In this document: positions 9,805 through 24,502 of the stretch, piece by piece
Position numbering within the stretch: position 1 is the stretch's first letter
Layout: every line of letters starts with the position of its first letter
NCBI GenBank assembly: GCA_030595795.1
Contig: JAUVCH010000001.1
Coordinates: forward strand, 38,678-102,677
Direction: 5' to 3'
DNA length: 64,000 bases
DNA from: Gammaproteobacteria bacterium
GTDB lineage: Bacteria; Pseudomonadota; Gammaproteobacteria; GCA-001735895
Made by a program: the position numbers and the translations under genes
Notes under the pieces: model-generated
Told to the model about the DNA's origin: nothing
Database searches by the model: none
The model's input: only the letters and a program-made list of their open reading frames with translations

Positions 9805-11115
9805 TTAAAACCTATCCCGCAAAGCAAAATAAGTCATTCCCAACACCAGCCCTGGATAGCGAAGCCAGGCTCCCCCGGGAAAAGATCGAGTAGGTAGTTT
9901 CCCAAACAAATCCAGTTTTTCGCTTTCTCCGGCAACCGCATCGGCCATGATTTTACCGCCGAGTGTGGCCATTGCGACACCGTGTCCCGAATAACCCTGG
10001 GCGAAATAAATACCACTATTATCGAGTCGACCGAAGTGTGGCATGCGATTGAGGGTGACAGCGAGTGTGCCGCCCCAGGCGTAGTCGATTTGTTTATCGG
10101 CTAGCTGAGGATAAATTTCTAGCATCGGTTTACGCACGAAACTTTTTATATCCGCCGGGAAGTTACGGCCATAATTTTCCCCGCCGCCGAAGAGCAGGCG
10201 TTTGTCGGCTGAGAGTCGGTAGTAATTTATGACGAAGCGCGAGTCGGCGATGGCGACGTCATTTGGGTTGATCGAATTAGCAGTGGCTTCATCGAGTGGT
10301 TCGGTAGCGATGATGAAGTTGTTAATGGGCATGATCTTTCCGGCCATGCGCTTTTCGAGGTTGCCCAGATAGCCGTTGCAGGCGAGGATAACGGCATCTG
10401 CTTCGACCGTGCCGTGGTTAGTGACGACTCGATTCGGTTTACCCCGTTGGTAGCTTTCGACAATGGTTGACTCATGCAGTATCGCGCCACTATTCCTGGC
10501 GGCATCGGCGAGTCCGAGCGCGTAATTCAGTGGGTGTAAATGGCCAGCACTCATATCCATGCTGCCACCGAAATAAGTATCACTACCGGTGACCTCTGCC
10601 ATTGCCTCCTGGCTCAGGTATTCGATTTGGTCGTGTCGATATTGCTTTTGCAGGTGCTCGACATATTCGCGCGATTCTTTGGCGTATCCGGCTTTATGGT
10701 CGGGGTGTGCAACGCCGGGTTTGAGATCGCACTGAATGTCATTTTCGCTGATAATTTGCCGTGCCAGGTTTTTAGCCTCTTCCGCAAGCTGCCAAAGTTT
10801 GGTCGCATCGGATAGACCCAGACGCTTTTCCAGATACCATTGATCTTTGCGTTGACCACTACCAAGCTGGCCACCATTTCTACCCGAAGCACCCCAGCCC
10901 ATTTTTCGGGCTTCCAGCAATACCACTTTATAACCGCGTTTGGACAGGTGTAGTGCGGCCGATAACCCGGTATAACCGCCACCGACGATGCAAACATCGG
11001 TTCGACAGGAGCCATCTAGTGGCGTCAGGTCGAGCTGTCGGTTTTGCGAGGCATGATAATAGGATGCCGGGTAGCTTTCGGTATCGCTGCGATCCTGGGA
11101 AAGTGTAAAACTCAT
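9805..11115 (-). CDS. FAD-dependent oxidoreductase, gamma-glutamylputrescine oxidase (PuuB)-like
   Basis: VCIVGGGYTGLSAAL, GASGRNGGQ, HLHPLNYALGLA, GYSGHGV; in an operon with a glutamylase and an aminotransferase. Confidence 0.85.
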   Translation of the reverse strand: MSFTLSQDRSDTESYPASYYHASQNRQLDLTPLDGSCRTDVCIVGGGYTGLSAALHLSKRGYKVVLLEARKMGWGASGRNGGQLGSGQRKDQWYLEKRLGLSDATKLWQLAEEAKNLARQIISENDIQCDLKPGVAHPDHKAGYAKESREYVEHLQKQYRHDQIEYLSQEAMAEVTGSDTYFGGSMDMSAGHLHPLNYALGLADAARNSGAILHESTIVESYQRGKPNRVVTNHGTVEADAVILACNGYLGNLEKRMAGKIMPINNFIIATEPLDEATANSINPNDVAIADSRFVINYYRLSADKRLLFGGGENYGRNFPADIKSFVRKPMLEIYPQLADKQIDYAWGGTLAVTLNRMPHFGRLDNSGIYFAQGYSGHGVAMATLGGKIMADAVAGESEKLDLFGKLPTRSFPGGAWLRYPGLVLGMTYFALRDRF

Positions 11116-12500
11116 TTTGTTTTTTTAACGTCTTGCTGGGTTAAATCCAGGCATTTCCAGGTGCGTTCGATAAATAGATCGATTTCTGTTTTTTGCAGAA
11201 TTAAGGGCGGCGATATGATCATCGCATCGCCAACCGCTCGCATAATTAAATTATTATCAAAACTATGAGTGCGGCAAATAGAACCCACGCCGTCGTCTTT
11301 ATCGAACTTGATAAAGTTTTCCTTGTCTTTAACCAGTTCCAGGGCGCCGAGCATGCCGACACCTCTAACCTGGCCTACCAGTGGATGATCGCCGAGTTCG
11401 CGCAGGCGCTTTTGCAGGTAGGGCGCGGTTTCGTCGTGAACTTTTTGCACGATGTTTTCCTTCTGCATCAACCTGATATTGGCTACCGCTGCGGCTGCGC
11501 ACACGGGGTGTCCTGAATAGGTGTAACCGTGGTTAAATTCGCCGCCCTGGTTGATGAGTACATCGGCGACGCGATCCCCTACCATCACTCCGCCGATGGG
11601 TAAATAACCCGATGACAGGCCCTTGGCGATAGGCATTAAATCGGGCTTGAGGTCGTAGTAGTCGGTGCCGAACCAGTGACCAGTTCGACCAAAGCCACAG
11701 ATGACTTCGTCCGCCACCAGCAAGATACCGTAGTGGTCGCAAATTTTCTTTACTTCTGGCCAGTAGGTCTCGGGTGGCACGATGACGCCACCTGCTCCCT
11801 GGATGGGTTCGGCGATGAATGCGGCGACTTTGTCGACGCCGAGCTCTTCGATTTTATCGGCGATCGATTGTGCGACTTCGAGACCGAATTCGTTAGCGTC
11901 CAGGTCATGGCCGAGTTCACAGCGTTTGGCGAACCAGTGTGGCTGCTCGACGTGTACGATATCGGGGATGATGCCACCCTGCTTGTGCATGTCTTCCATG
12001 CCGCCAAGGCTGGAGGCTGCGATAGTGCTACCGTGGTAGGCATTTTTGCGGCTGATAATAACGCGCTTTTCGGGCTTGCCGAGAATATCCCAGTAGCGCC
12101 AGGCCATGCGGATAACGGTGTCGTTGGCTTCCGAACCCGAGCTGGTGAAGAAAGTGTGGTTCATGTGATCCGGAGTCACTTCTGCGAGTAATCCAGATAG
12201 CTCTGCGGCGGGTGGGTGCGAAGTCTTGAAGAATGCGTTGTAGTAGGGTAGTTGTTCGATTTGAGTGCTAACTGCTGCAATGATATCTTTTTGACCATAA
12301 CCCATGTTGACGCACCACAGGCCAGCCATCATATCGAGATAATCGTTGCCTTCAGAATCGGTGAGGTAAACGCCGTGTGCCGACTCGATAATGCGAGCGG
12401 CCTGCTCTTTTAATTCCTTAGGGTCGGTAAATGGATGAAGATGATGGGCACCATCCAGGCTTTGCCATTTTTCGGTATTGACTGCGTTAGTTTGTGACAT
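11112..12500 (-). CDS. Class III aminotransferase, SpuC-like putrescine/polyamine:pyruvate transaminase
   Basis: HHLHPFTD, AGLWCVNMGYG, AEPIQGAGGVIVPP, ADEVICGFGRTG, AKGLSSGYLP, HGYTYSGHP. Confidence 0.85.
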   Translation of the reverse strand: MSQTNAVNTEKWQSLDGAHHLHPFTDPKELKEQAARIIESAHGVYLTDSEGNDYLDMMAGLWCVNMGYGQKDIIAAVSTQIEQLPYYNAFFKTSHPPAAELSGLLAEVTPDHMNHTFFTSSGSEANDTVIRMAWRYWDILGKPEKRVIISRKNAYHGSTIAASSLGGMEDMHKQGGIIPDIVHVEQPHWFAKRCELGHDLDANEFGLEVAQSIADKIEELGVDKVAAFIAEPIQGAGGVIVPPETYWPEVKKICDHYGILLVADEVICGFGRTGHWFGTDYYDLKPDLMPIAKGLSSGYLPIGGVMVGDRVADVLINQGGEFNHGYTYSGHPVCAAAAVANIRLMQKENIVQKVHDETAPYLQKRLRELGDHPLVGQVRGVGMLGALELVKDKENFIKFDKDDGVGSICRTHSFDNNLIMRAVGDAMIISPPLILQKTEIDLFIERTWKCLDLTQQDVKKTK

Positions 12501-12575
12501 GCTGTGCTCCTGACTTGGTGCAGGCTCTATCGTCCTGCTTAAGTAAATTAAGGCTAAATAGTCTTGCTGGAAAAA

Positions 12576-13901
12576 TTAAACTTTGAGCAATAAATGCTCG
12601 CGTTCCCAGGGTGTAATGGTATTCAAAAATTCCTCAAACTCGACTTCTTTAATGGCGACATAGAGATCGATAAATTCGTCGCCGAGTACCTCCCGAAGTG
12701 CCTGACTGTCGGACAGCCGCTGCAACGCCTGATACCAGTTGCGTGATAATTCAAATGGCTTATTAAAGGCGTTTTCCAGCATTGGCTGGCTTGCCTTCAT
12801 CGACTGCTTCATGCCGACATAACCGCAGGCCAGAGAAGTCGCGATAGCGATGTAGGGGTTTACATCGGCAGAGGCGATTCGGTTTTCTATCCGCATCGAG
12901 TCTGGATTGTTGTCGGGCACGCGAAATCCAACGGTACGATTGTCGAAACCCCAATGTGCATTAATCGGCGCGGACATGTCACGTACAAAGCGTCGGTACG
13001 AATTTACGTAAGGTGCCATCAGAGCCTGAGCCTGTGGCAGGAGCTTTTGCAGACCGCCTATATGGCTAAGAAATAGCTTATTGGGCTCGCCATCAGGGGT
13101 GGAAAACAGGTTTTTCCGGCTTTCCAGGCCGACTACACTCTGGTGAATATGCATCGCGCTACCGGGTTGGTGTTCGACCGGCTTGGCCATAAAGGTCGCG
13201 TAAATCTCATTATGCAAAGCCGCTTCTTTAACCGTGCGTTTTAATAAAAAGGCCTGATCTGCTAGTTCCACCGGGTCGCCATGGAGTAGATTGATCTCCA
13301 TTTGTGCTTTACCTTCTTCGTGGAGAAAGCTGTCGATCTGTAGTTGTTGTGCTTCAGCATAAGCATACATATCGTCTAGCACTGGTTGGTATTCATAGTT
13401 TGCTGCGATATTAAACGACTGTCCGTTTGACTCTGCGCGACCATTGCGACCTTTCGGTGGTTGCAATGGTTGATTTGGGTCTAAATTTGGCTTTACCAGA
13501 TAAAATTCGAGTTCTGGCGCGATCACTGGATCCCAGCCTTCGTTACGATACAACTCGACTACCTGGCGCAATACCTGGCGTGGAGCAATTTTGACTGGCT
13601 GCCCCTGTTTATCGAAGCAATCGTGAATTACCTGGGCCGAGTTGCCTTTCGCCCAGGGCAATCGGCGAATCGAGCCTGGGTCAGGCTGTAGTATCATATC
13701 CCTATCAAGAGGATTGATATCACTTTGTAGATCAGGGTAACTACCCGCTAACGACTGCATGAAAATTGATTCGGGTAGTCGCAGCACGGAGGCATCATTA
13801 AATTTTGACGCGGACATTAGCTTGCCGCGAGCGGCACCAGCCATGTCAGAGACAACGCATTCGATTTCGGTGACCTGGTTTTTTTCGATCCAGTCTTGCA
13901 T
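12576..13901 (-). CDS. Glutamine synthetase-family gamma-glutamyl-polyamine ligase (PuuA/PauA-like)
   Basis: ARGK, APELEFYL, HEEGKAQMEINL, FMAKP, GSAMHIHQS, DNRTVGFR, IENRI. Confidence 0.85.
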   Translation of the reverse strand: MQDWIEKNQVTEIECVVSDMAGAARGKLMSASKFNDASVLRLPESIFMQSLAGSYPDLQSDINPLDRDMILQPDPGSIRRLPWAKGNSAQVIHDCFDKQGQPVKIAPRQVLRQVVELYRNEGWDPVIAPELEFYLVKPNLDPNQPLQPPKGRNGRAESNGQSFNIAANYEYQPVLDDMYAYAEAQQLQIDSFLHEEGKAQMEINLLHGDPVELADQAFLLKRTVKEAALHNEIYATFMAKPVEHQPGSAMHIHQSVVGLESRKNLFSTPDGEPNKLFLSHIGGLQKLLPQAQALMAPYVNSYRRFVRDMSAPINAHWGFDNRTVGFRVPDNNPDSMRIENRIASADVNPYIAIATSLACGYVGMKQSMKASQPMLENAFNKPFELSRNWYQALQRLSDSQALREVLGDEFIDLYVAIKEVEFEEFLNTITPWEREHLLLKV

Positions 13902-14002
13902 AAACTGCTACTCGTATTTAATGTAAATTTATTTCAGGCCGGATCTTGATCGGCTTGTGATAAAACCTGCTGCTTCCAGACATTGTATGCAACCATTCGG
14001 AT

Positions 14003-14031
14003 ATTGTGATCACAAAATTAATATAAGTCAA
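14003..14031 (-). promoter_or_regulatory. Sigma70-type promoter of the puuA-like operon with operator TTGTGATCACAA (14004-14015) over the -10 box
   Basis: Minus strand reads TTGACT-N17-CACAAT; the palindrome overlaps the -10. Confidence 0.65.
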
Positions 14032-14064
14032 CAAACCTGTTACTCTCTGATTATAGAAGAGTAA

Positions 14065-14094
14065 TTGACAGTCTAAGTGACGGCGTGATAGCTT
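14065..14094 (+). promoter_or_regulatory. Candidate sigma70 promoter for pentein hydrolase paralog 2
   Basis: TTGACA-N18-TAGCTT with a TGn extension. Confidence 0.45.
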
Positions 14095-14150
14095 TTTCGC
14101 TCCATTTAAAGGGGCGGTTCCGATAGCCCAACTATTTAGCAGGATTAATT

Positions 14151-15071
14151 ATGAATTCCGAATTTAAATTACGTGCAAGGAATGAGGGTGGTGGTACGCC
14201 AGCTCTCGATAACTGGGGCGCCGATTGTGAATATGGCGTATTAAGAGACATCCTGTTAGGTCCTGCAGACCATTATCAGTGGTTAGAGACCAGTTCGGTT
14301 TCGAAGAAAAGTATTCGTCGCAATTATCAATTCGATGCAAAGATCGCTCAGTCTCAACATGCCGAAATGGTTTCAGCTTACGAGTCTGCAGGCGTAAAAG
14401 TACACATGCACGCCGCCGACCCAGAATTGCCTTATCAGATTTTTGCCCGGGATTCGTCGGTTATGACGCCATTCGGGGCGATTATTACCAGCATGGCTAA
14501 CTGGTGGCGTCGTGGCGAGAACTTTCGCGCCATCGAAACCTATGAGCGCCTGGGTATTCCGATTTATGATTATGTTACCGCAGGCACTTTCGAAGGTGGT
14601 GATTTCAATGTCGTCGAACCGGGCACGGTATTAATTGGCTGGGAAGGCGACGAGGGTCGTAGCCAACAGCAGTCCGCCGTGCAGTTGAAGAACTGGTTTG
14701 AGGCCGAAGGTTGGGAAGTCATGCTCACTGACCTTGATCCTTTCTATGTTCATATCGACTTAATGGTCGTTATGTTAGCGCCCAAGCTTGCGGCTGTGTG
14801 CCTGGAGTCAACCGACGCCGACGTGGTCGACTGGCTCAAGTCGAAACAAATCGAAATCATCAGCGTGCCGTTTAAAGACACGCTTGATCTTGGCTGTAAT
14901 GTCGTGGCACTGGGTAATGATCGGGTGTTACTGCCAGAGAAAAGTCTGGTGCTCAAGGAGAAAATCAAAGCTCATGGTTTAGAGATTTACGACCCGGACG
15001 TGTCGATGATTACGCCCGGTGGTGGTGGAGTGCATTGTATGTGTCAGGCTTTGCGACGGGATCCGGGCTAA
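14151..15071 (+). CDS. Pentein-superfamily guanidino hydrolase (DDAH-like), paralog 2
   Basis: FARDS, FEGGDF, HID, GGGGVHCMCQAL; clearly homologous to 4259..5149. Confidence 0.8.
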   Translation: MNSEFKLRARNEGGGTPALDNWGADCEYGVLRDILLGPADHYQWLETSSVSKKSIRRNYQFDAKIAQSQHAEMVSAYESAGVKVHMHAADPELPYQIFARDSSVMTPFGAIITSMANWWRRGENFRAIETYERLGIPIYDYVTAGTFEGGDFNVVEPGTVLIGWEGDEGRSQQQSAVQLKNWFEAEGWEVMLTDLDPFYVHIDLMVVMLAPKLAAVCLESTDADVVDWLKSKQIEIISVPFKDTLDLGCNVVALGNDRVLLPEKSLVLKEKIKAHGLEIYDPDVSMITPGGGGVHCMCQALRRDPG

Positions 15072-15177: not shown

Positions 15178-15501
15178 ATGACAAATGATATTAAAAAGCC
15201 TGAATTGGGCGATGAAACAGTAGATACCAGCCGACGAAACGCGCTTTCGCGTCTTGGTCTGGTAGCGACGGCGGCCTATGCGGCTCCAGTATTAATGACA
15301 TTAAGTCAATCGGCACATGCTTCTGGTGGTTCTGGCGGAGGTGGAGGCTCTGGAAACGGTGGAGGCTCTGGGAACGGCGGAGGTTCCGGTGGCTCTGGAA
15401 ACGGCGGAGGTTCCGGTGGCTCTGGTGGCTCCGGCGGAGACTCAGATGGCGATACTGGTTCCTCAGGTGGATCGCTCGATGAAGACCAAACCACTGATTA
15501 A
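15178..15501 (+). CDS. Small Gly/Ser-rich protein with Tat-like leader; putative RiPP-like precursor peptide
   Basis: GAGG RBS; SRRNAL twin-Arg; hydrophobic stretch containing YAAPVL; AHA cleavage motif at residue 48; 59-aa core of SGG/SGNGGG repeats with an acidic tail. Third codon positions vary across repeats, as expected for a real coding frame. Confidence 0.75.
   Translation: MTNDIKKPELGDETVDTSRRNALSRLGLVATAAYAAPVLMTLSQSAHASGGSGGGGGSGNGGGSGNGGGSGGSGNGGGSGGSGGSGGDSDGDTGSSGGSLDEDQTTD
15322..15438 (+). repeat. Coding tandem repeats (18-bp and 27-bp units) giving SGNGGG / SGG
   Basis: AACGGCGGAGGTTCCGGTGGCTCTGG occurs at 15373 and 15400 (period 27); GGAGGCTCTGG(A/G)AACGG units have period 18. 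Confidence 0.85.
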
Positions 15502-15543: not shown

Positions 15544-15574
15544 ACCGGACAGATATTTTGTCCGGTTTTTTTTT
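15544..15574 (+). terminator. Hairpin plus T tract between the precursor and kinase genes
   Basis: ACCGGACA-GATATTT-TGTCCGGT followed by a run of T. Confidence 0.75.
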
Positions 15575-15614
15575 GCCCGTATTATTGAGTCAGATTTTAA
15601 ACAGGAGTGGATGA

Positions 15615-16805
15615 ATGCCCGACAGCATCGTGCATCTAAAGTTCGATGATATGTCGAAACTGGTTAAGTTTGTTGATTGCGGCGAACTGATTGAGTGTCT
15701 TGAAAGTGTTTTCCCGACCTGGAATATTATTGAGGTCTCACCAGAAGATTCTGGCGAGGCTCCGATACTTTGTATTACCAGAGAAGATAATGCTTATTGC
15801 ATCGATGGATTTTGGCTAGGAAAGCAGATGCATCGCGTAGACATAGTCGATGCCGCCTGTGGTCTGGTCGCCGAGCTGATTCGAGCTTATGTGCGGGAAG
15901 ATCCTCAATTACTGTGTTTACACGGTGCATCCGCAGAATTTGCTGGCAAACTGGTAATATTTCCTAGTCAATACAGGTCGGGTAAAAGTGTTTTATCGGC
16001 CTGTTTGGCATCCGCTGGAATTCAGTTGTACGGCGATGATGTTTTGCCTCTTAGTTTGTCGGAAGGCAAGGGGATTGCACCGGGTTTGGCGTTACGTTTG
16101 AGGCGGCCTTTACCTGAAAACTTAACCACAGAATCGTCAGAGTTTATCCGGGAGCACACTGGCCTAACCGGCAAAAATTATCAATATCTTGATCTTAGCA
16201 ATGAACAATTAGCGCAAAAAGGAGCGCAAGCATCAATTGGTGCGTTTGTTTTGCTGGAACGCGAGGAAAATACGGTAGCGACATTCGAGGAAACCTCGGA
16301 GGCAGAAGTATTGCGGCAAGTTGTCTGGCAAAATTTCGCTCGTGAGGCAGAGGCCCCACATATCCTGGATGTGTTGAGTCAGTTAGTGGCGAATTCACAG
16401 TTCTATCGGCTCCGTTTCGACCGAGCTGAAGATGCGGTTAAGTTGCTTAAAGAAAAGTTTAAAACCTGGCCTGGTAGAGTAGACCATCTCAACAGGAAGC
16501 TGAAGCAGTCTGAAGTCAATAATAAGCAAGCCTTACAACCAGAATATTTTATAAGAAAACCTGATACTAGCGTTATCCAGGTTGGCGATGATAGTTTTAT
16601 AGCAGACAAACAGGGTGCTGCAATACACCATTTGAATACCGTTGGAACTGCTATCTGGACACTGCTTGCCGAACCAGTGCGGGTCGAAGATATGACCGAT
16701 TTATTGCTGACTGCCTTTCCTGAGATCGATGCCGATTCGACAACAGAGGATGTAAAGGAATTGATTAACGAACTAGTAGATAAGGGATTATTGCTAAGCG
16801 GCTAA
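15615..16805 (+). CDS. HPr-kinase-related P-loop kinase fused to a C-terminal PqqD/RRE domain
   Basis: LHGAS (His), P-loop PSQYRSGKS and LYGDD reproduce the HPrK-family motif order. The C-terminal ~90 aa (IHHLNTVGTAIWTLL...DVKELINELVDKGLL) has the PqqD-family pattern. CAGGAG RBS. Confidence 0.75.
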   Translation: MPDSIVHLKFDDMSKLVKFVDCGELIECLESVFPTWNIIEVSPEDSGEAPILCITREDNAYCIDGFWLGKQMHRVDIVDAACGLVAELIRAYVREDPQLLCLHGASAEFAGKLVIFPSQYRSGKSVLSACLASAGIQLYGDDVLPLSLSEGKGIAPGLALRLRRPLPENLTTESSEFIREHTGLTGKNYQYLDLSNEQLAQKGAQASIGAFVLLEREENTVATFEETSEAEVLRQVVWQNFAREAEAPHILDVLSQLVANSQFYRLRFDRAEDAVKLLKEKFKTWPGRVDHLNRKLKQSEVNNKQALQPEYFIRKPDTSVIQVGDDSFIADKQGAAIHHLNTVGTAIWTLLAEPVRVEDMTDLLLTAFPEIDADSTTEDVKELINELVDKGLLLSG

Positions 16806-16810
16806 GACGA

Positions 16811-17650
16811 CTAGTCCTCACCAGACATCTGCAATTCCAGTTGGCGTTGTTTTTGCTGCCGCAGCATTATCCAGGCAGCTAGTAGTACACCGATGGCGAC
16901 TACTAAAATTATAATGGTCGCAAGTGCATTTATATCCGGCCGAAGACCCAGTCGCACCCGGGAGTAAATCAACATTGGCAGCGTGACCGCACCGGGGCCT
17001 GAAACAAAACTGGCAATAATTAAATCATCCAGCGACAGTGTGAATGATAATAACCAGCCAGCGAGCATACCGGGCGCGATTAGAGGCAGGGTAATGTCGG
17101 TAAGCACTCGAAATGGTTTCGCGCCCAAATCCTGCGCGGCTTCTTCCAGGTCTTGCGCCATGCCAGCGAGTCTTGACTGGATGATGACCGCGACATAGGC
17201 CATGGAAAATGTGATATGGGCGATGGTGATGGTGGTGAATCCACGCTTGTCCGGCCATCCGATAAATTCTTTTAGCGTAATAAACAACAAGAGCAGGGAT
17301 AAGCCGGTGATGACCTCTGGCATGACCAGTGGTGCGGTAATCATGCCGCTGAATAAGGTGCGCCCTTTGAATTGACCGAAACGCACCAGGGCCAGGCCCG
17401 CCAAGGTACCGAGTATGGTAGCAAAGCAGGCATTCACAGTGGCAATTTTCAAACTCAGAGTTACTGCGCGCCAAACTTCTTCACTTTCGAATAAAACACC
17501 GTACCAGCGCGTAGAAAAACCACCCCACACCGGCACCAGTTTGGAATAGTTGAACGAGTATACGATCAACATGAGCATGGGAATATACAGAAAAGCCAGC
17601 CCGAAACAGGTGACTGTGAACAGGAATCGGGATTTCTTGCCGTTATTCAT
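16811..17650 (-). CDS. potI: Putrescine/polyamine ABC transporter permease
   Basis: FLYIP, PLVMPEVITGLSLL, LEEAAQDLGA, FTLSLDDL. Confidence 0.9.
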   Translation of the reverse strand: MNNGKKSRFLFTVTCFGLAFLYIPMLMLIVYSFNYSKLVPVWGGFSTRWYGVLFESEEVWRAVTLSLKIATVNACFATILGTLAGLALVRFGQFKGRTLFSGMITAPLVMPEVITGLSLLLLFITLKEFIGWPDKRGFTTITIAHITFSMAYVAVIIQSRLAGMAQDLEEAAQDLGAKPFRVLTDITLPLIAPGMLAGWLLSFTLSLDDLIIASFVSGPGAVTLPMLIYSRVRLGLRPDINALATIIILVVAIGVLLAAWIMLRQQKQRQLELQMSGED

Positions 17651-18558
17651 TTCGACTCCGTTTCTTTGCCTTGCACATGCTGATAAAGCATCATCGGCAA
17701 TACTAGAACTAACAGCAGGGCAATTGCGACCGCAGAAGCGACCGGCCAGTCGACATTGGCATTAAATTCGTTGTACAGAATTCGACCGATCATTAAGACG
17801 TTACCACCGCCGAGCAGGTCGGGTATGACGTATTCACCAGTCGCTGGGATAAAAACTAGCAAGGATCCGGCGATGATACCGGGCAGGGTCATCGGAACAG
17901 TAACGGTCAGAAATGTCGTTGCCGGTCGCGCACCGAGATCTTCAGCGGCTTCCAGCAGGGTCCAGTCGAGCTTTTCCATATTGGCGTAAAGCGGCAGTAT
18001 CATGAACGGTAAATAAGTATAAACAATGCCGACATAGACGGCGAAATGCGAATATAAGAGCCGAATCGGCTCATCAATGAGGCCAATTGCTATGAGTAAA
18101 TTATTGATTGTCCCCTGATCGGCGAGCAGCCCCATCCAGGCGTAAACCCGAAGTAAAAACGAGGTCCAGAAAGGCAGGATAACCAGCATTAGTAAAATGT
18201 TTTTACGGGTCTGGCTGGAACGTACGATAGCGTAGGCCATCGGGTAGCCGATGAGCAGGCAAATTAGAGTCGATATCGACGATATTTTTAACGAACTGAT
18301 GTAGGTCTTAACGTATAAATCGTCTTCCCAGAGGTAGGCGAAATTGTCGAATACCAGTTTGATATGCATCACACCTTCATCGACCCAGTTGATCATCGGT
18401 AAAAATGGGGGGCTGGCTATGGTGGCTTCGGAGAGGCTTATCTTGAAAACGATGAAAAAAGGCGCGAGAAAGAATATCAGCAGCCAGAAGAAGGGGATGA
18501 AGACGACTACTGACTTCCAGTTTCGTTGCAGCGATCGGGATATCCCCTGCAATGTCAT
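17647..18558 (-). CDS. potH: Putrescine/polyamine ABC transporter permease
   Basis: LPFWTSFLLRVYAW, YLPFMILPLY, LLEAAEDLGA, GEYVIPDLLGG. Confidence 0.9.
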   Translation of the reverse strand: MTLQGISRSLQRNWKSVVVFIPFFWLLIFFLAPFFIVFKISLSEATIASPPFLPMINWVDEGVMHIKLVFDNFAYLWEDDLYVKTYISSLKISSISTLICLLIGYPMAYAIVRSSQTRKNILLMLVILPFWTSFLLRVYAWMGLLADQGTINNLLIAIGLIDEPIRLLYSHFAVYVGIVYTYLPFMILPLYANMEKLDWTLLEAAEDLGARPATTFLTVTVPMTLPGIIAGSLLVFIPATGEYVIPDLLGGGNVLMIGRILYNEFNANVDWPVASAVAIALLLVLVLPMMLYQHVQGKETESK

Positions 18559-19700
18559 TTGCTGAGTACCACCGAGCTGGAAGCTTCCCAGCTGAGATAA
18601 ACTTCGTCTTCCCAGTCTATGGCCAGGTTGCCATCTTTGGGTCTGGAGAGGTTTGGTGAGGTGACCTCAATCAGCGTGTCATCGTCTATTTTGACACGAT
18701 AAATCGAAATTTTCCCGAGGTAAGCGATATCGTGAACAACCCCTTTAACCTGATTAGCGCGCGCTTCATCCGGTGCCTGCTTTGATATTTTTATCTTCTC
18801 CGGGCGCAGTGCAACCCATACTTTGTGGCCCTCCTGAATTTCAAGTCCGTGGTCGATATAAATTTCACATTCGGGCTGTTTGCTCTGTACAACAACATGA
18901 TCGGGACCATTCTCAATGATTCTACCCTGAAACATATTGGCATTGCCGATGAAATTGGCAACCAGTCGTGATTCGGGGAATTCGTAAATTTCTGTCGGTG
19001 TGCCAATTTGCATAAATCGGCCGGTATCCATCACTGCGATACGCGTGGACAGCGTCATCGCTTCTTCCTGGTCGTGGGTGACGACGACAAAGGTGACGCC
19101 GAGTTGTTCCTGGATATTCATGAGTTCGAACTGAGTCTGCTCGCGTAGGCGTTTATCCAGAGCGGCTAAAGGTTCGTCCAGGAGTAGCACTTTAGGGCTT
19201 TTTACCAGGGCTCGGGCTAGCGCGACACGTTGCTTCTGGCCACCGGATAACTGGTGCGGTTTACGCTTACTAAACTGGGTGAGTTCGACCATGGCCAACA
19301 TATCATCGACACGTTGTTTGATTTCGATTTTACCAAAACCTTCACGTTTCAGGCCATAAGCGACATTATTTTCGACCGTCATATGCGGGAATAGCGCGTA
19401 GGACTGAAACATCATGTTGACCGGGCGTTCATAAGGCGGCACATCGTTCATGTTAACGCCGTCGATAAAAATATTGCCGGATGATGGGGTTTCAAATCCT
19501 GCCAGCATTCTTAGCAGCGTTGTTTTGCCGCAGCCGGAACCGCCGAGCAGAGAGAAAAGCTCACCCTTGTAGATATCGAGATCCACATTGTCTACTGCGG
19601 TGAAACTACCAAATTGTTTGCTGACGCTTTGAACCTTTATGAATGGTTCGGCATCGGAATCCATCCAGGGTCGATCCGTGTATTGAGAAGGGTCAGGCAT
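18555..19700 (-). CDS. potG: Putrescine/polyamine ABC transporter ATP-binding protein
   Basis: GGSGCGKTT, FQSYALFPHM, LSGGQKQR, LLLDEP, VTHDQEEA, C-terminal TOBE region. Start moved to ATG 19700. Confidence 0.9.
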   Translation of the reverse strand: MPDPSQYTDRPWMDSDAEPFIKVQSVSKQFGSFTAVDNVDLDIYKGELFSLLGGSGCGKTTLLRMLAGFETPSSGNIFIDGVNMNDVPPYERPVNMMFQSYALFPHMTVENNVAYGLKREGFGKIEIKQRVDDMLAMVELTQFSKRKPHQLSGGQKQRVALARALVKSPKVLLLDEPLAALDKRLREQTQFELMNIQEQLGVTFVVVTHDQEEAMTLSTRIAVMDTGRFMQIGTPTEIYEFPESRLVANFIGNANMFQGRIIENGPDHVVVQSKQPECEIYIDHGLEIQEGHKVWVALRPEKIKISKQAPDEARANQVKGVVHDIAYLGKISIYRVKIDDDTLIEVTSPNLSRPKDGNLAIDWEDEVYLSWEASSSVVLSK

Positions 19701-19731
19701 TGCGAGTAGCTCCACAACAAATATCAATCAT

Positions 19732-19766
19732 AAAAAAACCGGAGTGACATGATATCACTCCGGTTT
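19732..19766 (-). terminator. Hairpin/terminator between potF and potG
   Basis: AAACCGGAGTGA...TCACTCCGGTTT with an A tract on the plus strand (U tract in the minus-strand transcript). Confidence 0.75.
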
Positions 19767-19778
19767 CGGGTTGTGGCC

Positions 19779-20882
19779 TTAATTTCCCGCTTTGAAGTTT
19801 GTCCAGGTGCGGGTACGGATGCGCTCGATTTTGGGAGGTACTACTGCCAGCGTGTACATTTTTGCAACCTGATCTGAGGTCGGGAAAGCTGCTGGACTGC
19901 CGGTAACCTCCTCATCAATCATTTTGATCGCTGAATAGTTGGCGGTTGCATACCAGGAGTAGTTGGAGTCGGCTGCTGCTACTTCGGGTCGCATCATATA
20001 GTCTAAAAATAAGTGTGCGTTTTCGATATTTTCCGCGTCAGCCGGAATCACCCAACCATCTACCCAGAGATTAGCTGCCCCGTCCCCAGGTGGCAGGAAG
20101 AAATCCAGAACTACACCCGTGTTGGCCTCTTCTGCACCAGACATCGCCAGTAGGCCATCAGGACCCCAGGTAACCGATACGCAAAATTCGCGTTGAGGCA
20201 TTCTCTGGTAGGCGTAGTTATCAAAGGTTTTGATGTAAGGACGTACTTTCTTGAGCATGTCTTCGACTTTCTTGTAGTCTGCCTTGTTGTTTGAGGCTGG
20301 ATCGAGTCCAAGATAGGCCAGTGCCATAGGGATGACATCGGTCGGAGAATCGAGGAAAGAAACACCACATTTTGCCAGCTCTTTCATATGCTTCGGGTCA
20401 AAGATCATGTCGAGCGAGCCAATCGGAGCACCTGGGTGGGTTTTCAATACCAGTTCCTCATTATAGGTAACGCCATGCGTACCCCACATATACGGAATAA
20501 CATATTGGTTACCAGGATCCCAGTTCGTCGAAAGCTGTGCCATGATAGATGCATCCATGTGCCTGAGATTAGACAGTTTTGAAATATCAATTTTTTGTAA
20601 AATACCACCCGGAATTAAGCGGCCTATTGCTGAACCTGAGTGGGCGACGACATCGTAACCCGAACTACCAGCTAGCAGCTTGGCGTCGATGGCTTCGACC
20701 GAATCGTAGTTATCGTAGATGACTTTGATGTCATATTCTTTGGCAAAGTTGGCGATGGTTTCTTCGCCAATATACTCCGCCCAGTTAGTGACGTTAAGTG
20801 ACCCAGCCGCGCTGACGGCGGATGAGCCGACTATCATCACTGTGGCAAGTATGCCGTTAATAGTGTTCTTCGTTGTTTTCAT
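19779..20882 (-). CDS. potF: Polyamine ABC transporter substrate-binding protein (PotF/PotD family)
   Basis: Signal peptide, LNVTNWAEYI, AKLLAGSSGYDV, PYMWGT, RTRTWTNFK; GGAGG upstream of ATG 20882. Confidence 0.8.
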   Translation of the reverse strand: MKTTKNTINGILATVMIVGSSAVSAAGSLNVTNWAEYIGEETIANFAKEYDIKVIYDNYDSVEAIDAKLLAGSSGYDVVAHSGSAIGRLIPGGILQKIDISKLSNLRHMDASIMAQLSTNWDPGNQYVIPYMWGTHGVTYNEELVLKTHPGAPIGSLDMIFDPKHMKELAKCGVSFLDSPTDVIPMALAYLGLDPASNNKADYKKVEDMLKKVRPYIKTFDNYAYQRMPQREFCVSVTWGPDGLLAMSGAEEANTGVVLDFFLPPGDGAANLWVDGWVIPADAENIENAHLFLDYMMRPEVAAADSNYSWYATANYSAIKMIDEEVTGSPAAFPTSDQVAKMYTLAVVPPKIERIRTRTWTNFKAGN

Positions 20883-21004
20883 TAGTGTTCCTCCGGTGGA
20901 CTGAATTATGATATTGGATGCCGGTTGCATCCGCAATCTTGTAGAATAGTATAACTTTAAAACTGTACTGAAACTTAATTGAGGCTCTGTTTTCTGCTCG
21001 ATTA

Positions 21005-21033
21005 ATAGTGATCACAAAAACCATGAATGTCAA
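21005..21033 (-). promoter_or_regulatory. Sigma70 promoter of potFGHI with operator AGTGATCACA (21007-21016) over the -10 box
   Basis: Minus strand reads TTGACA-N17-CACTAT. Confidence 0.65.
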
Positions 21034-21072
21034 TCGGGTATTGTGGGCTTGTAGGTTTTACTGGTTTATTTT

Positions 21073-21741
21073 TCATGCTTCTTTCATAAACTGCCGAATT
21101 GATACCGATTCATTTGGATAAATTATTTCGATTAATCGATATATCTCCTGTATTGCCTGCTGGCGCTTAAAGTTTGGCGGGCCGATTAAAAAGTTTTGCC
21201 AGAGTCCGTCGATTATGGCCTCAATTGTTATAGCAGCAGAGTCGGCAGGAAGGGTGGCGCTGGTATTTTGCTCGATTTTCTGACATACCTGGCTTAAAGC
21301 TTCTGAAAAGGCACGGTCCTGTTCGCCGCAGAGAGACATATAAATAGGGCGTGAACGAGCTTCTCCCCAAAATGCGAACCAGACGCTGATCTTTTTGCGG
21401 CTACAGATAGACGCTCGAAATGGTACGGCAATCAGAGCGCAGAGTTGTTCAATCGGGCTTTTACCGGTCTCGGCTAATACACTCTTCCAGCAGCGTAAAT
21501 ATTCTTCACTGAGGTGACGTAAGGCCTGTTCCAGTAGTAAATCCTTGCTTTGAAAATGGAATATAACATTACCCTGCGAAACCCCTGCGTGTTTGGCGAT
21601 ATGGGCTAAAGTTGTTTGAGACAGGCCGAGTTTGTCTATGCAGTCGAAGGTTGCTTCGACTAATTGTTGCTTGCGAAACTCGCTTTGCCTGGCGCGACTT
21701 CGGCTGTGCAAATTTTTCTCGGTGACGCTGATTGCGTTCAA
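21073..21741 (-). CDS. TetR-family regulator, BetI-type
   Basis: RKQQLVEAT, IAKHAGVSQGNVIFHFQSKDLL HTH, VWFAFWGEA, IDGLW (BetI-type C-terminal domain). Confidence 0.85.
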   Translation of the reverse strand: MNAISVTEKNLHSRSRARQSEFRKQQLVEATFDCIDKLGLSQTTLAHIAKHAGVSQGNVIFHFQSKDLLLEQALRHLSEEYLRCWKSVLAETGKSPIEQLCALIAVPFRASICSRKKISVWFAFWGEARSRPIYMSLCGEQDRAFSEALSQVCQKIEQNTSATLPADSAAITIEAIIDGLWQNFLIGPPNFKRQQAIQEIYRLIEIIYPNESVSIRQFMKEA

Positions 21742-21884
21742 GTACTATTCCAGCAACTGCTTTTAACTGGAATTTAATTTAAACTGAGTGTTTAGTCAAT
21801 GAAAAATTGTATATCGTTGAAATATTTGAATTTAATATATAAATAGTTAGAATACTGGTTACCAAATTGAAAAGCGGGTGTGAC

Positions 21885-23267
21885 ATGTCAGAAAAAACAG
21901 CAGAGTTGAGACGAAACGATAACCAGTTTATCCATCCCTGGGATGATATTGCTAAACTCGGTGAGAATCAGCGCACCGTGCTTGAGCGTGGCGACGGCGT
22001 TTACGTTTATGATAGCGATGGTCATCGGTTACTCGATGCGCCGGCTGGTATGTGGTGTGTTAACATTGGTCATGGTCGGGAGGAAATGGCGCAGGTCATT
22101 TACGACCAGATCATGCAACTGTCTTATGCTTCGCCCTGGTCTTTGACTACTGGTCCGGCCGCACAGTTTAGTGCTCAGATTGCAGCAGAAGCGCCCGGTG
22201 ATATGAATCACGTGTTTTTTACCACCTGTGGCTCTACTGCAGTCGATTCGGCATTACGCTTTGTGCAGTTCTATAATAACGTACGCGGTAAGCCGCAAAA
22301 AAAGGGCATCATCGCGCATCAAAAAGGTTATCACGGCAGCACCTATCTTGGCGCTAGCGTTTCTGGAAAGGAAAGAGACAAGAACTACCTCGATTTTGCC
22401 GACCAGCTCGTGCATCACATTCCGGCACCGCATCCGTTACATAAAGACCCCAGCCAGTCTGATGCGGATTTCCTCGAGCAATGCGTCGCTAATTTAGAAA
22501 AGAAGATTCTGGACGTTGGGCCGGATTCGTGCGCGGTTTTTGTGTCTGAGCCAATCCTGGCCTCGGGCGGTGTCATCGTGCCGCCAGAGGGTTACCACGC
22601 GCGTTGCCTCGAACTTTGCCGTAAATATGACATGCTGTATTTATCGGATGAGGTAGTTACCGCCTTTGGCCGACTTGGTCATTGCTTTGCTTCCGAGGCG
22701 GTATTTGGCATTCAACCCGATTTAATTACCACAGCGAAGGGTTTGACCTCCGGTTATATCCCAATGGGAGCCGTACTGGTGTCTGATCGATTACTCGATG
22801 AATTACGTGCCTGTGGGGGCGATAGTGCGGTATTTTCGAATGGTTTTACCTATTCGGGTCATCCGGTTGCCGCTGCCGCTGGCATTAAAAACCTCGAAAT
22901 TATGAAGCGTGAGAAACTATTTGAGAACGCTCAGACAGTCGGGCAGTATTTTCAGCAGCAATTACGAACCCTGAGCGATATTCCGATTGTCAGCGATGTG
23001 CGCGGTGTCGGGTTAATGGGTTGTGTCGAATGCGAATTGAATCAGGGCGCTGGCGATCTTGAGCTGGATTATGATTTAGGTAATCGAATCGACAAACACT
23101 GCCAGGAACTTGGTTTGATCGTACGCCCAATCATCAATATGTGCGTCATGTCGCCACCTTTAATAATCACCAAAGATCAAATCGACGAAATGGTTTTAAT
23201 TCTGCGTACCGGCGTCGAACGCGCTATGCAGGATTGCATCGACGAAGGTATCTGGAAACCTGAATAA
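21885..23267 (+). CDS. Class III (omega-amine) aminotransferase
   Basis: FIHPW, AGMWCVNIGHG, EPILASGGVIVPP, SDEVVTAFGRLG, AKGLTSGYIP, GFTYSGHP. Confidence 0.85.
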   Translation: MSEKTAELRRNDNQFIHPWDDIAKLGENQRTVLERGDGVYVYDSDGHRLLDAPAGMWCVNIGHGREEMAQVIYDQIMQLSYASPWSLTTGPAAQFSAQIAAEAPGDMNHVFFTTCGSTAVDSALRFVQFYNNVRGKPQKKGIIAHQKGYHGSTYLGASVSGKERDKNYLDFADQLVHHIPAPHPLHKDPSQSDADFLEQCVANLEKKILDVGPDSCAVFVSEPILASGGVIVPPEGYHARCLELCRKYDMLYLSDEVVTAFGRLGHCFASEAVFGIQPDLITTAKGLTSGYIPMGAVLVSDRLLDELRACGGDSAVFSNGFTYSGHPVAAAAGIKNLEIMKREKLFENAQTVGQYFQQQLRTLSDIPIVSDVRGVGLMGCVECELNQGAGDLELDYDLGNRIDKHCQELGLIVRPIINMCVMSPPLIITKDQIDEMVLILRTGVERAMQDCIDEGIWKPE

Positions 23268-23281
23268 TTAGAGGTGAAAAA

Positions 23282-24502
23282 ATGAAATTCACAAACGCAA
23301 AAAAAATATTCGATCAAACCGGCAATGGCCGTAAAGGCCTGCCCCCCTGGACGTTTAATAACCCAGAACTGTCACAACTCGAGATGGAACAGGTGTTTTT
23401 GCGTAACTGGTTCTGGATCGGTCATATTTCAGATATTCCGAATACCGGTGACTATAAATGTCAGGAACTGGGCAACGAGCGCGCTGTAGTTATACGTGGT
23501 AAAGACGACAATATCCGAGCCTTTCACAATCTCTGTCGGCATCGTGGCTCACGCGTTGTCGAAGGTAAGGAAGGTAATTGTAAGAATGCTATCGTCTGCC
23601 CATTTCATGCCTGGTCTTATCATTTGGATGGGCGTTTAAAGACCATACCGCGCGCAGATACCTTCCCCGATATCGACAAGTCTGAATATGGCCTCAAACC
23701 ACTCGATTGCGAAGTTTGGCATGGTTTGATTTTCATTCGCTTTGGCGGTGAGGGTTCATCGGTTGCTGAGGCTATGGCAAGCGCCGAAGACGAGGTCAGC
23801 CTGTATAAAATGGCTGATATGAAACCAATCGATACTTTCTGGGATTTCGAGTTTGATCTGGACTGGAAGGCCGTGCTCGATATCGACAACGAAGGCTATC
23901 ACGTACCTAAAGGGCACCCTGAATTATACGATCTGTTCGGCAATACTTATCGGGATCAGATTACCGAGTGCGGACTATCCCGCGCACATGGTTATCTAAA
24001 AGATTCGCCTGCAAAGGGCCCGCTGGTGCAAAATTACCTCGATACTTTACCCGAAGGCAGCTACCTGCCTGAATCGCACCAGCGAATCTGGATTTACTGG
24101 GGCATGTTCCCAGGTTTCGTGGTCACGTTAATGCCAGACATGATTGAGGTTTACCAGACCTACTCGCTCGGTCATCAAAAAAGTATTATGGCCGGGGCCT
24201 GTTACGCGCTTGACGATGAACGCCCTGATATGCAAAAGGCGCGCGAATACAATCGCAAAATCAACATGACGGTCGGTGAAGAAGACATCAAACTGGTGAA
24301 GTATTCGGATCAGGGTATGCGTTCACAAGTGTATCAGGGAGCATTATTGTCAGACCTGGAGCTTGGTATTGCATCATTTCAGAACCAGTTGCGTGACCTG
24401 TTGCCCGTGGTGACGCTGGAGCTGCCACCCGAAACCGGTAAGCTCGTCGATAAAAACAAAGAGTTGCTCTATGCTCGACCCGCGCTACGCTCAGCTATTT
24501 GA
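23282..24502 (+). CDS. Rieske non-heme iron oxygenase alpha subunit (choline/betaine/carnitine-type group)
   Basis: CRHRG...CPFHAW Rieske motif; NEGYHVPKGHP mononuclear Fe ligands; EED. Confidence 0.85.
   Translation: MKFTNAKKIFDQTGNGRKGLPPWTFNNPELSQLEMEQVFLRNWFWIGHISDIPNTGDYKCQELGNERAVVIRGKDDNIRAFHNLCRHRGSRVVEGKEGNCKNAIVCPFHAWSYHLDGRLKTIPRADTFPDIDKSEYGLKPLDCEVWHGLIFIRFGGEGSSVAEAMASAEDEVSLYKMADMKPIDTFWDFEFDLDWKAVLDIDNEGYHVPKGHPELYDLFGNTYRDQITECGLSRAHGYLKDSPAKGPLVQNYLDTLPEGSYLPESHQRIWIYWGMFPGFVVTLMPDMIEVYQTYSLGHQKSIMAGACYALDDERPDMQKAREYNRKINMTVGEEDIKLVKYSDQGMRSQVYQGALLSDLELGIASFQNQLRDLLPVVTLELPPETGKLVDKNKELLYARPALRSAI

Follow-up and report, generated by a model that had tools for sequence, protein, structure and literature searches.

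The window (the whole stretch of 64,000 nucleotides analysed here) contains, on its forward strand, a short gene for a candidate precursor peptide, followed directly by a gene for a protein in which a kinase domain is joined to an RRE. The features of this two-gene locus are as follows.

15178..15501, forward strand: precursor gene (107 aa), a 48-residue leader followed by a 59-residue tail
15229..15258, forward strand: n-region S18-G27 with a conserved RRxALxRLG block; R19/R20 at 15232-15237; Ala replaces the Tat Phe
15253..15303, forward strand: uncharged h-region L26-L42, assigned from conservation in leaders
15277..15294, forward strand: Y34-x-x-P37-x-L39, predicted RRE recognition motif, from conservation and the matching Asn/Asp of the RRE
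15313..15321, forward strand: A46-H47-A48, predicted signal peptidase I site, from AxA conservation
15322..15498, forward strand: Gly/Ser-rich low-complexity core, predicted kinase substrate, first residue Ser
15544..15576, forward strand: strong terminator-like hairpin with a T-run, between the precursor and kinase genes
15615..16805, forward strand: kinase-RRE gene (396 aa), directly downstream of the precursor gene
15615..16487, forward strand: HprK/PEPCK-fold kinase domain, with H103, G123-K124-S125 and D141-D142 intact
16530..16805, forward strand: C-terminal RRE (PqqD fold), PF05402 over its cut-off

A residue map of the open reading frame at 15178-15501 (S18 at 15229, Y34 at 15277, P37 at 15286 and L39 at 15292) places S18, the arginine pair, Y34 and the AHA site exactly where an earlier sequence-only reading of this DNA had put them. 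The precursor has no family match above cut-off in Pfam or NCBIfam. The pair is flanked by a dimethylargininase-like gene upstream and by a convergent transporter operon downstream, neither of which is conserved as a partner. More broadly, it is set among genes for polyamine/amine uptake and catabolism (9805-15071 and 16811-24502 of the window), including aminotransferases, a glutamine-synthetase-like gene, an ABC transporter and the dimethylargininase-like amidinotransferase, a context that is not kept in relatives. The hairpin at 15544..15576 may set an excess of precursor over kinase, and a similar hairpin was found in 15 of 50 precursor-kinase intergenic regions in a crude scan run with no shuffle control. 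A promoter scan stayed at chance level, with 3 found versus 3.2 expected.

The enzyme encoded by the second gene has intact key residues in both of its domains. The kinase domain matches TIGR04352 (HprK-related kinase A) with an E value of 3.9e-9 and 36 bits, below the cut-off of 200, and the AlphaFold2 model of the whole protein (mean pLDDT 88) gave Foldseek matches to PEPCK and HprK. An alignment of 53 kinase domains shows H103 in 52 of them, G123-K124-S125 and D141 in all 53, and D142 in 51; we take these residues to be the HprK catalytic motifs, in agreement with the weak HprK matches. The model's C-terminal portion superposes on the lasso RRE TbiB1 with a TM-score of 0.88 by target length and an rmsd of 1.5 Å. 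N341 and D379 are present in 56 and 58 of 60 RREs, respectively, and by our own residue count they align with N33 and D70 of PDB 9X8Z, an entry named solely PqqD family protein that is probably LppB, judging by the agreement in residue numbering. In LppB, as reported, N33 and D70 bind the Tyr of the YxxP motif and hold the Pro kink in place (PMC13381572). The RRE is the sole PqqD match in its own genome, which is 92% complete. Fusion of the two domains is dispensable, since the kinase and the RRE are encoded by separate genes at several loci (L034, L035, L038, L040, L041, L043, L046-L052, L054, L056, L058 and L059).

The leader motifs that the sequence-only reading had picked out in this one peptide are conserved in homologs. 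The consensus of 66 leader matches from kinase loci is RRxALxRLG-x6-YxxPxLxxLSxAxA, with the two arginines in 65/66 and 66/66, Leu at Tyr+5 in 59/66 and an identical R-to-Y spacing throughout; Tyr and Pro are each present in 66/66, counts that are partly circular because the matches were anchored on aromatic/Val plus Pro, although none was dropped for lacking Tyr or Pro. A leader profile matched 706 protein clusters at 50% identity; of the best 150, 149 carry RR and all have Tyr, Pro and a hydrophobic residue at +5, figures that are circular since the same profile selected the clusters. Tyr and Pro are invariant across leaders of ~40-90% identity from Gamma- and Alphaproteobacteria and Desulfobacterota. 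The bare RR-x13-YxxPx[LMIVF] pattern occurs in 5 of the 8,615 open frames in the genome, a total that counts spurious frames, and is weak evidence taken alone; it is the conservation among relatives that lifts the leader motif above chance and led us to reject a chance motif as its source. Among the 14 Tat-like candidates retained by a home-made filter in the same genome, YxxP is found solely in the product of 15178-15501.

The gene pair is widespread. A scan of species genomes yielded 60 kinase loci, spread over Gamma- and Alphaproteobacteria and Desulfobacterota; several come from a genome or lineage that also holds another of the loci. A leader-bearing gene lies directly upstream of the kinase at 50 of the 53 loci counted, 1 of the 50 being divergent, and an adjacent precursor is absent at 3; the other 7 loci were left out for having fewer than 600 bases upstream. 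In a sample of 201 Paracoccaceae genomes, the centre genome included, the leader was found in at least 22 (E<=3e-7) and the kinase in 23 (E<=2e-37), and all 22 leader-bearing genomes also carry the kinase. The odd kinase genome has two in-frame stops in the kinase gene (L134, G093). Two weak leader matches (E ~0.004) were dropped, and some leaders could have been missed since at most 38 candidates were scored per genome. In another genome (L144, G224) the kinase gene is in two pieces and the leader is still present. Within the genus of the window, a strong leader accompanies 8 of 9 kinase genomes, and in a sample drawn at order level around a Desulfobacterales genome, both components occur in the centre genome alone (1/151), a patchy distribution. 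Such co-occurrence stems largely from the two genes being adjacent; it indicates a stable module and is not in itself proof of binding.

What we observe, then, is that the leader carries both sets of motifs, that the two genes are paired, that the key residues of kinase and RRE are intact, and that no exporter or peptidase is co-conserved with them. Our working hypothesis, which we hold to be probable with some reserve, is that of a two-gene system in which the leader docks the RRE-kinase via YxxPxL, the tail is phosphorylated, and the product is then exported by Tat and cleaved by signal peptidase I. In this sequence of events, the RRE of the adjacent kinase would likely bind the YxxPxL of the leader, and the kinase domain would likely phosphorylate Ser/Thr residues of the Gly/Ser-rich tail. 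The leader would then likely be released to TatBC, where it would act as a Tat signal, and signal peptidase I is predicted to cut after A48, at the AHA site. Since YxxPxL lies inside the h-region, RRE binding would hide that region, and we speculate that export would thereby be delayed until modification is done. On the present sequence comparisons, the evidence for the proposed docking is good and that for Tat export of the predicted-signal precursor is moderate.

The explanation that best competes with this one holds that the whole leader, twin arginine included, is a docking surface for the RRE-kinase, that modification takes place, that the product is retained in the cytoplasm or exported by Sec, and that the likeness to a Tat signal is incidental. 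We consider it unlikely, although the absence of the Tat Phe speaks for it: the Ala found at this position in the window, already pointed out in the sequence-only reading, proved to be family-wide, the 231 short precursors having Phe in 1 case and Ala in 181, and most other Tat-like candidates of the same genome have Phe there. The fixed R-to-Y spacing goes the same way, as does the score of the precursor against TIGR01409, 15.6 bits for a cut-off of 16.7, with E<=0.1 in 15 of 62 leaders. Against it stands the anatomy of an export signal. A twin arginine, required of Tat substrates, is present in the n-region, the h-region is free of charged residues in 60/66 leaders (median hydropathy 1.7), AxA is present in 62/66, and K or R occurs in the c-region of 42/66, a basic residue there being a mark of Sec avoidance. 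A pattern for the n-region modeled on TatFind fits 230 of 237 leaders, that of the window precursor among them. The genome contains tatC and one S26 signal peptidase, and unfolded hydrophilic chains can be carried by Tat. The cargo also argues against a purely cytoplasmic role: among 27 longer leader-bearing proteins scanned, we found Peptidase_S8 in 6, PepSY in 5 (below cut-off), a dihaem cytochrome c in 1 and Ysc84 in 1 (P0176 and P0132 for the last two), all domains that work outside the cytoplasm.

Natural variants in which the two codes come apart bear on the same question. Three orphan paralogs that lie away from any kinase (one on contig C142 of the genome of the window, the others in genomes G014 and G020) retain RR together with an Ala-x-Ala-type end, and the position of the precursor's Tyr is taken by V, C or I; G014, which is 97% complete, has no kinase match. 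That these Tyr-less proteins keep RR is at odds with an arginine pair used for docking only. Conversely, four internal leader copies near kinase loci (L010:8575-9264, L011:8642-9274, L012:8575-9282 and L023:8645-9265) sit behind a separate signal-like N-terminus and show acidic residues where the h-region had been, with YxxP intact. Tyr thus tracks the kinase and an uncharged h-region tracks the signal position, with the caveat that the orphans are one paralog family from one genus and the internal copies are close relatives, so that each loss may be a single event. The internal copies also retain the RRxAxxRLGL block, in favor of the docking-only explanation, a hint that the enzyme recognizes the n-region block as well. 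Because these copies, unable to act as signals, keep RR, Tat alone does not account for its conservation, and RR may serve docking besides, or in place of, Tat. The tails of the orphans (C142:84163-84438, which is L086, L084 and L085) start with His-Lys and carry a Cys pair.

The sequence-only reading had proposed that the signal peptide doubles as the RiPP leader. The part of this that stands is a likely RRE docking site with the anatomy of a signal peptide; the attribution of RR to Tat does not stand by itself. It had further proposed that Tat and signal peptidase replace a dedicated exporter and leader protease. In line with this, a survey of 117 neighbors from 25 of the 60 loci, in which long genes were represented by 520 residues, showed no recurrent peptidase, ABC exporter or NTP transferase; the missing Phe and the subthreshold TIGR01409 score weaken the Tat half of the proposal.

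Returning to the phosphorylate-then-export hypothesis, the tails are plausible kinase substrates. That of the window precursor counts 31 Gly, 13 Ser and 3 Thr among its 59 residues and no Pro, hence no Pro-containing repeat. Family tails are hypervariable and of low complexity, with a median S+T content of 25% and fewer than 10% S/T in 11 of 199. Pairs of S/T three residues apart are enriched 1.47-fold, and [ST]xP[ST] is present in 108/199 tails versus 45 in shuffles, both figures being inflated by tandem repeats. An S/T residue falls within the first 3 residues past the predicted AxA cleavage in 153 of 192 precursors. The target of phosphorylation is thus most likely the Ser just past the cut, the S/T-x-P-S/T repeats or both, the first of these echoing the single site, Ser3, of the LPP system discussed below. 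A subgroup of tails with Arg runs and repeated S-F-S, often ending in S-F-S-R (P0135, P0162, P0165, P0189, P0205 and others), differs from the acidic or Gly-rich tails.

A second alternative, which we judge improbable, is that the RRE-ATPase is a chaperone or regulator of signal peptides in the manner of NapD or TorD, perhaps in envelope signaling, and that no stable phosphopeptide is made. The wide variation of the tails would suit such a role, and so would the company of the leader, found on subtilases and on PepSY proteins beside two-component genes, with an ECF sigma/anti-sigma pair beside the system at 10 of 60 loci (L010, L011, L012, L023, L030, L033, L044, L047, L049 and L060); overlap between Tat and chaperone epitopes has a precedent as well (PMC3712460). 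However, the full HprK catalytic set is kept, LPP provides a precedent for phosphorylation, the tails are rich in S/T with the spacing biases given above, and the genome of the window has no match to the ECF-linked anti-sigma or to the leader-bearing subtilase.

The longer leader-bearing proteins raise a possibility of broader scope, about which we are doubtful, namely, that the leader serves as a transferable "phosphorylate, then export" tag for peptides and folded periplasmic proteins alike. Subtilases, PepSY proteins, the dihaem cytochrome c and ECF-linked proteins would be its cargo, and the RRE-kinase would phosphorylate a linker and gate Tat, a scheme that we put forward tentatively and would not bet on. 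If true, bacteria would have in RiPP machinery a general protein kinase of the secretory pathway and a proofreader for Tat. The leader-bearing subtilases (L044:1481-2812, L099, L109, L111 and L113 look intact) retain the catalytic motifs, and where Tat signals have Phe, all 6 of 6 show L, M or I. PepSY-type proteins with the leader are found at L022, L062, L095, L098 and L100, the one at L062 beside response regulator and histidine kinase genes.

Finally, YxxP could be an inherited trait of one signal-peptide lineage, the kinase-RRE acting elsewhere and the genes merely traveling together; linked genes co-occur anyway and the bare pattern does arise by chance, but the invariance of Tyr and Pro over such divergent leaders, the matching RRE residues, the loss of Tyr in orphans and an RRE that is the only PqqD domain of its genome make this very improbable.

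The sequence-only reading had called YxxPxL a lasso-type motif, which is too narrow, since YxxP is described as common to several RiPP classes (PMC12710340, PMC13381572), and the closest system is LPP (lppAKBSDN, Bacillota; Popov et al. 2026, PMC13381572). As described there, LPP shares with our pair a YxxPx[V/L] leader, the RRE Asn/Asp pair, an HprK-like kinase and no cyclase, a similar distance from Tyr to the cleavage site (Y-16 in LPP, Y-14/-15 here), signal-peptidase-I-type cleavage (predicted here), a highly variable core and a Ser soon after the cleavage site (PMC13381572). Its LppK, of the same fold family as the window kinase, is reported to polyphosphorylate core Ser3 (PMC13381572). 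Unlike in LPP as described, the leader here combines RR with an h-region and AxA, the RRE is in most cases joined to the kinase rather than discrete, no SpI peptidase, MsbA-like exporter or NTP transferase is encoded in the cluster, and the hosts are Proteobacteria and Desulfobacterota rather than Bacillota (PMC13381572). Without this cluster-encoded peptidase, exporter and transferase, we rejected membership in LPP.

Lasso systems (TbiA/TbiB1, FusA/FusB1) have the same YxxPxL motif, TbiB1 is the closest solved structure to the window RRE, and HprK-like (paeninodin-type) kinases occur in some lasso clusters. Unlike lasso precursors, ours has a long low-complexity core. The B2 leader peptidase PF13471 has 0 matches in the 92%-complete genome, and Asn_synthase matches, sought for a macrolactam cyclase, lie solely on other contigs, with none in the locus or among the 117 neighbors; a lasso peptide was rejected on these grounds. 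HPr-rel-A (TIGR04352) likewise combines an HprK-related kinase with a PqqD partner; the score of 36 bits against a cut-off of 200 and the absence of NTP_transf_5 from the genome of the window led us to reject this membership too.

Two further comparisons concern the export side. Bufferins, like the system proposed here, use a general export signal in place of a dedicated exporter and protease, and they differ in relying on Sec rather than Tat and on MNIO chemistry on Cys (PMC11626156, PMC12452194). Their signal is described as having no conserved RRE motif (PMC12710340) and as dispensable for modification upon overexpression (PMC11626156). In NapD-NapA Tat proofreading, the chaperone epitope overlaps the Tat signal, as proposed here; the fold is another one and the process serves cofactor loading of a folded enzyme, whereas ours would be a RiPP-type RRE tied to a kinase (PMC3712460). 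The masking proposal itself is not new, the masking of a Sec signal by a partner protein having been proposed, with preliminary support, for bufferins, for which the way a signal-bearing RiPP precursor avoids early exit is a stated open question (PMC12452194).

Neither "Tat" nor "signal peptide" appears in the main text of PMC13381572, and "kinase" does not appear in that of RRE-Finder (PMC7470986). Word searches of the supplements of PMC12710340 and PMC13381572, which covered text and not figures, gave no match to Tat, and the family could sit unnamed in their networks. No paper describing a Tat-type leader that contains YxxP and is paired with an RRE-kinase turned up in a literature search outside of which most subscription papers lay. 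The window pair would seem to represent a genuine variant of phosphorylated RiPP systems, widespread and apparently not yet described. With two genes, a YxxPxL epitope in the h-region, natural single-code variants and a +80 Da read-out, it offers a minimal test of premature export. If our hypothesis is true, it would link RRE recognition to Tat quality control, explain one route to extracytoplasmic phosphoproteins and supply a 30-residue tag with which secreted phosphopeptides could be made.

The surroundings of the ECF pairs have features of their own. The four genes with internal leader copies are divergent from an ECF sigma/anti-sigma pair, which is also found at L109 and L111, and the anti-sigma carries PF16998 in those scanned. 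Assignment of the neighboring ECF to group ECF26 was considered and not confirmed from the available text of PMC7826278. Leader-bearing proteins near an ECF pair frequently terminate in a conserved acidic motif and then G/N-W, and a similar acidic ending stands behind a leader-less signal at L047:7293-7826. Lastly, a second, tandem precursor-kinase pair occurs at L032:5928-7608 and L061:7351-9123, where the core is very short and the Arg pair is shifted by 1 residue.
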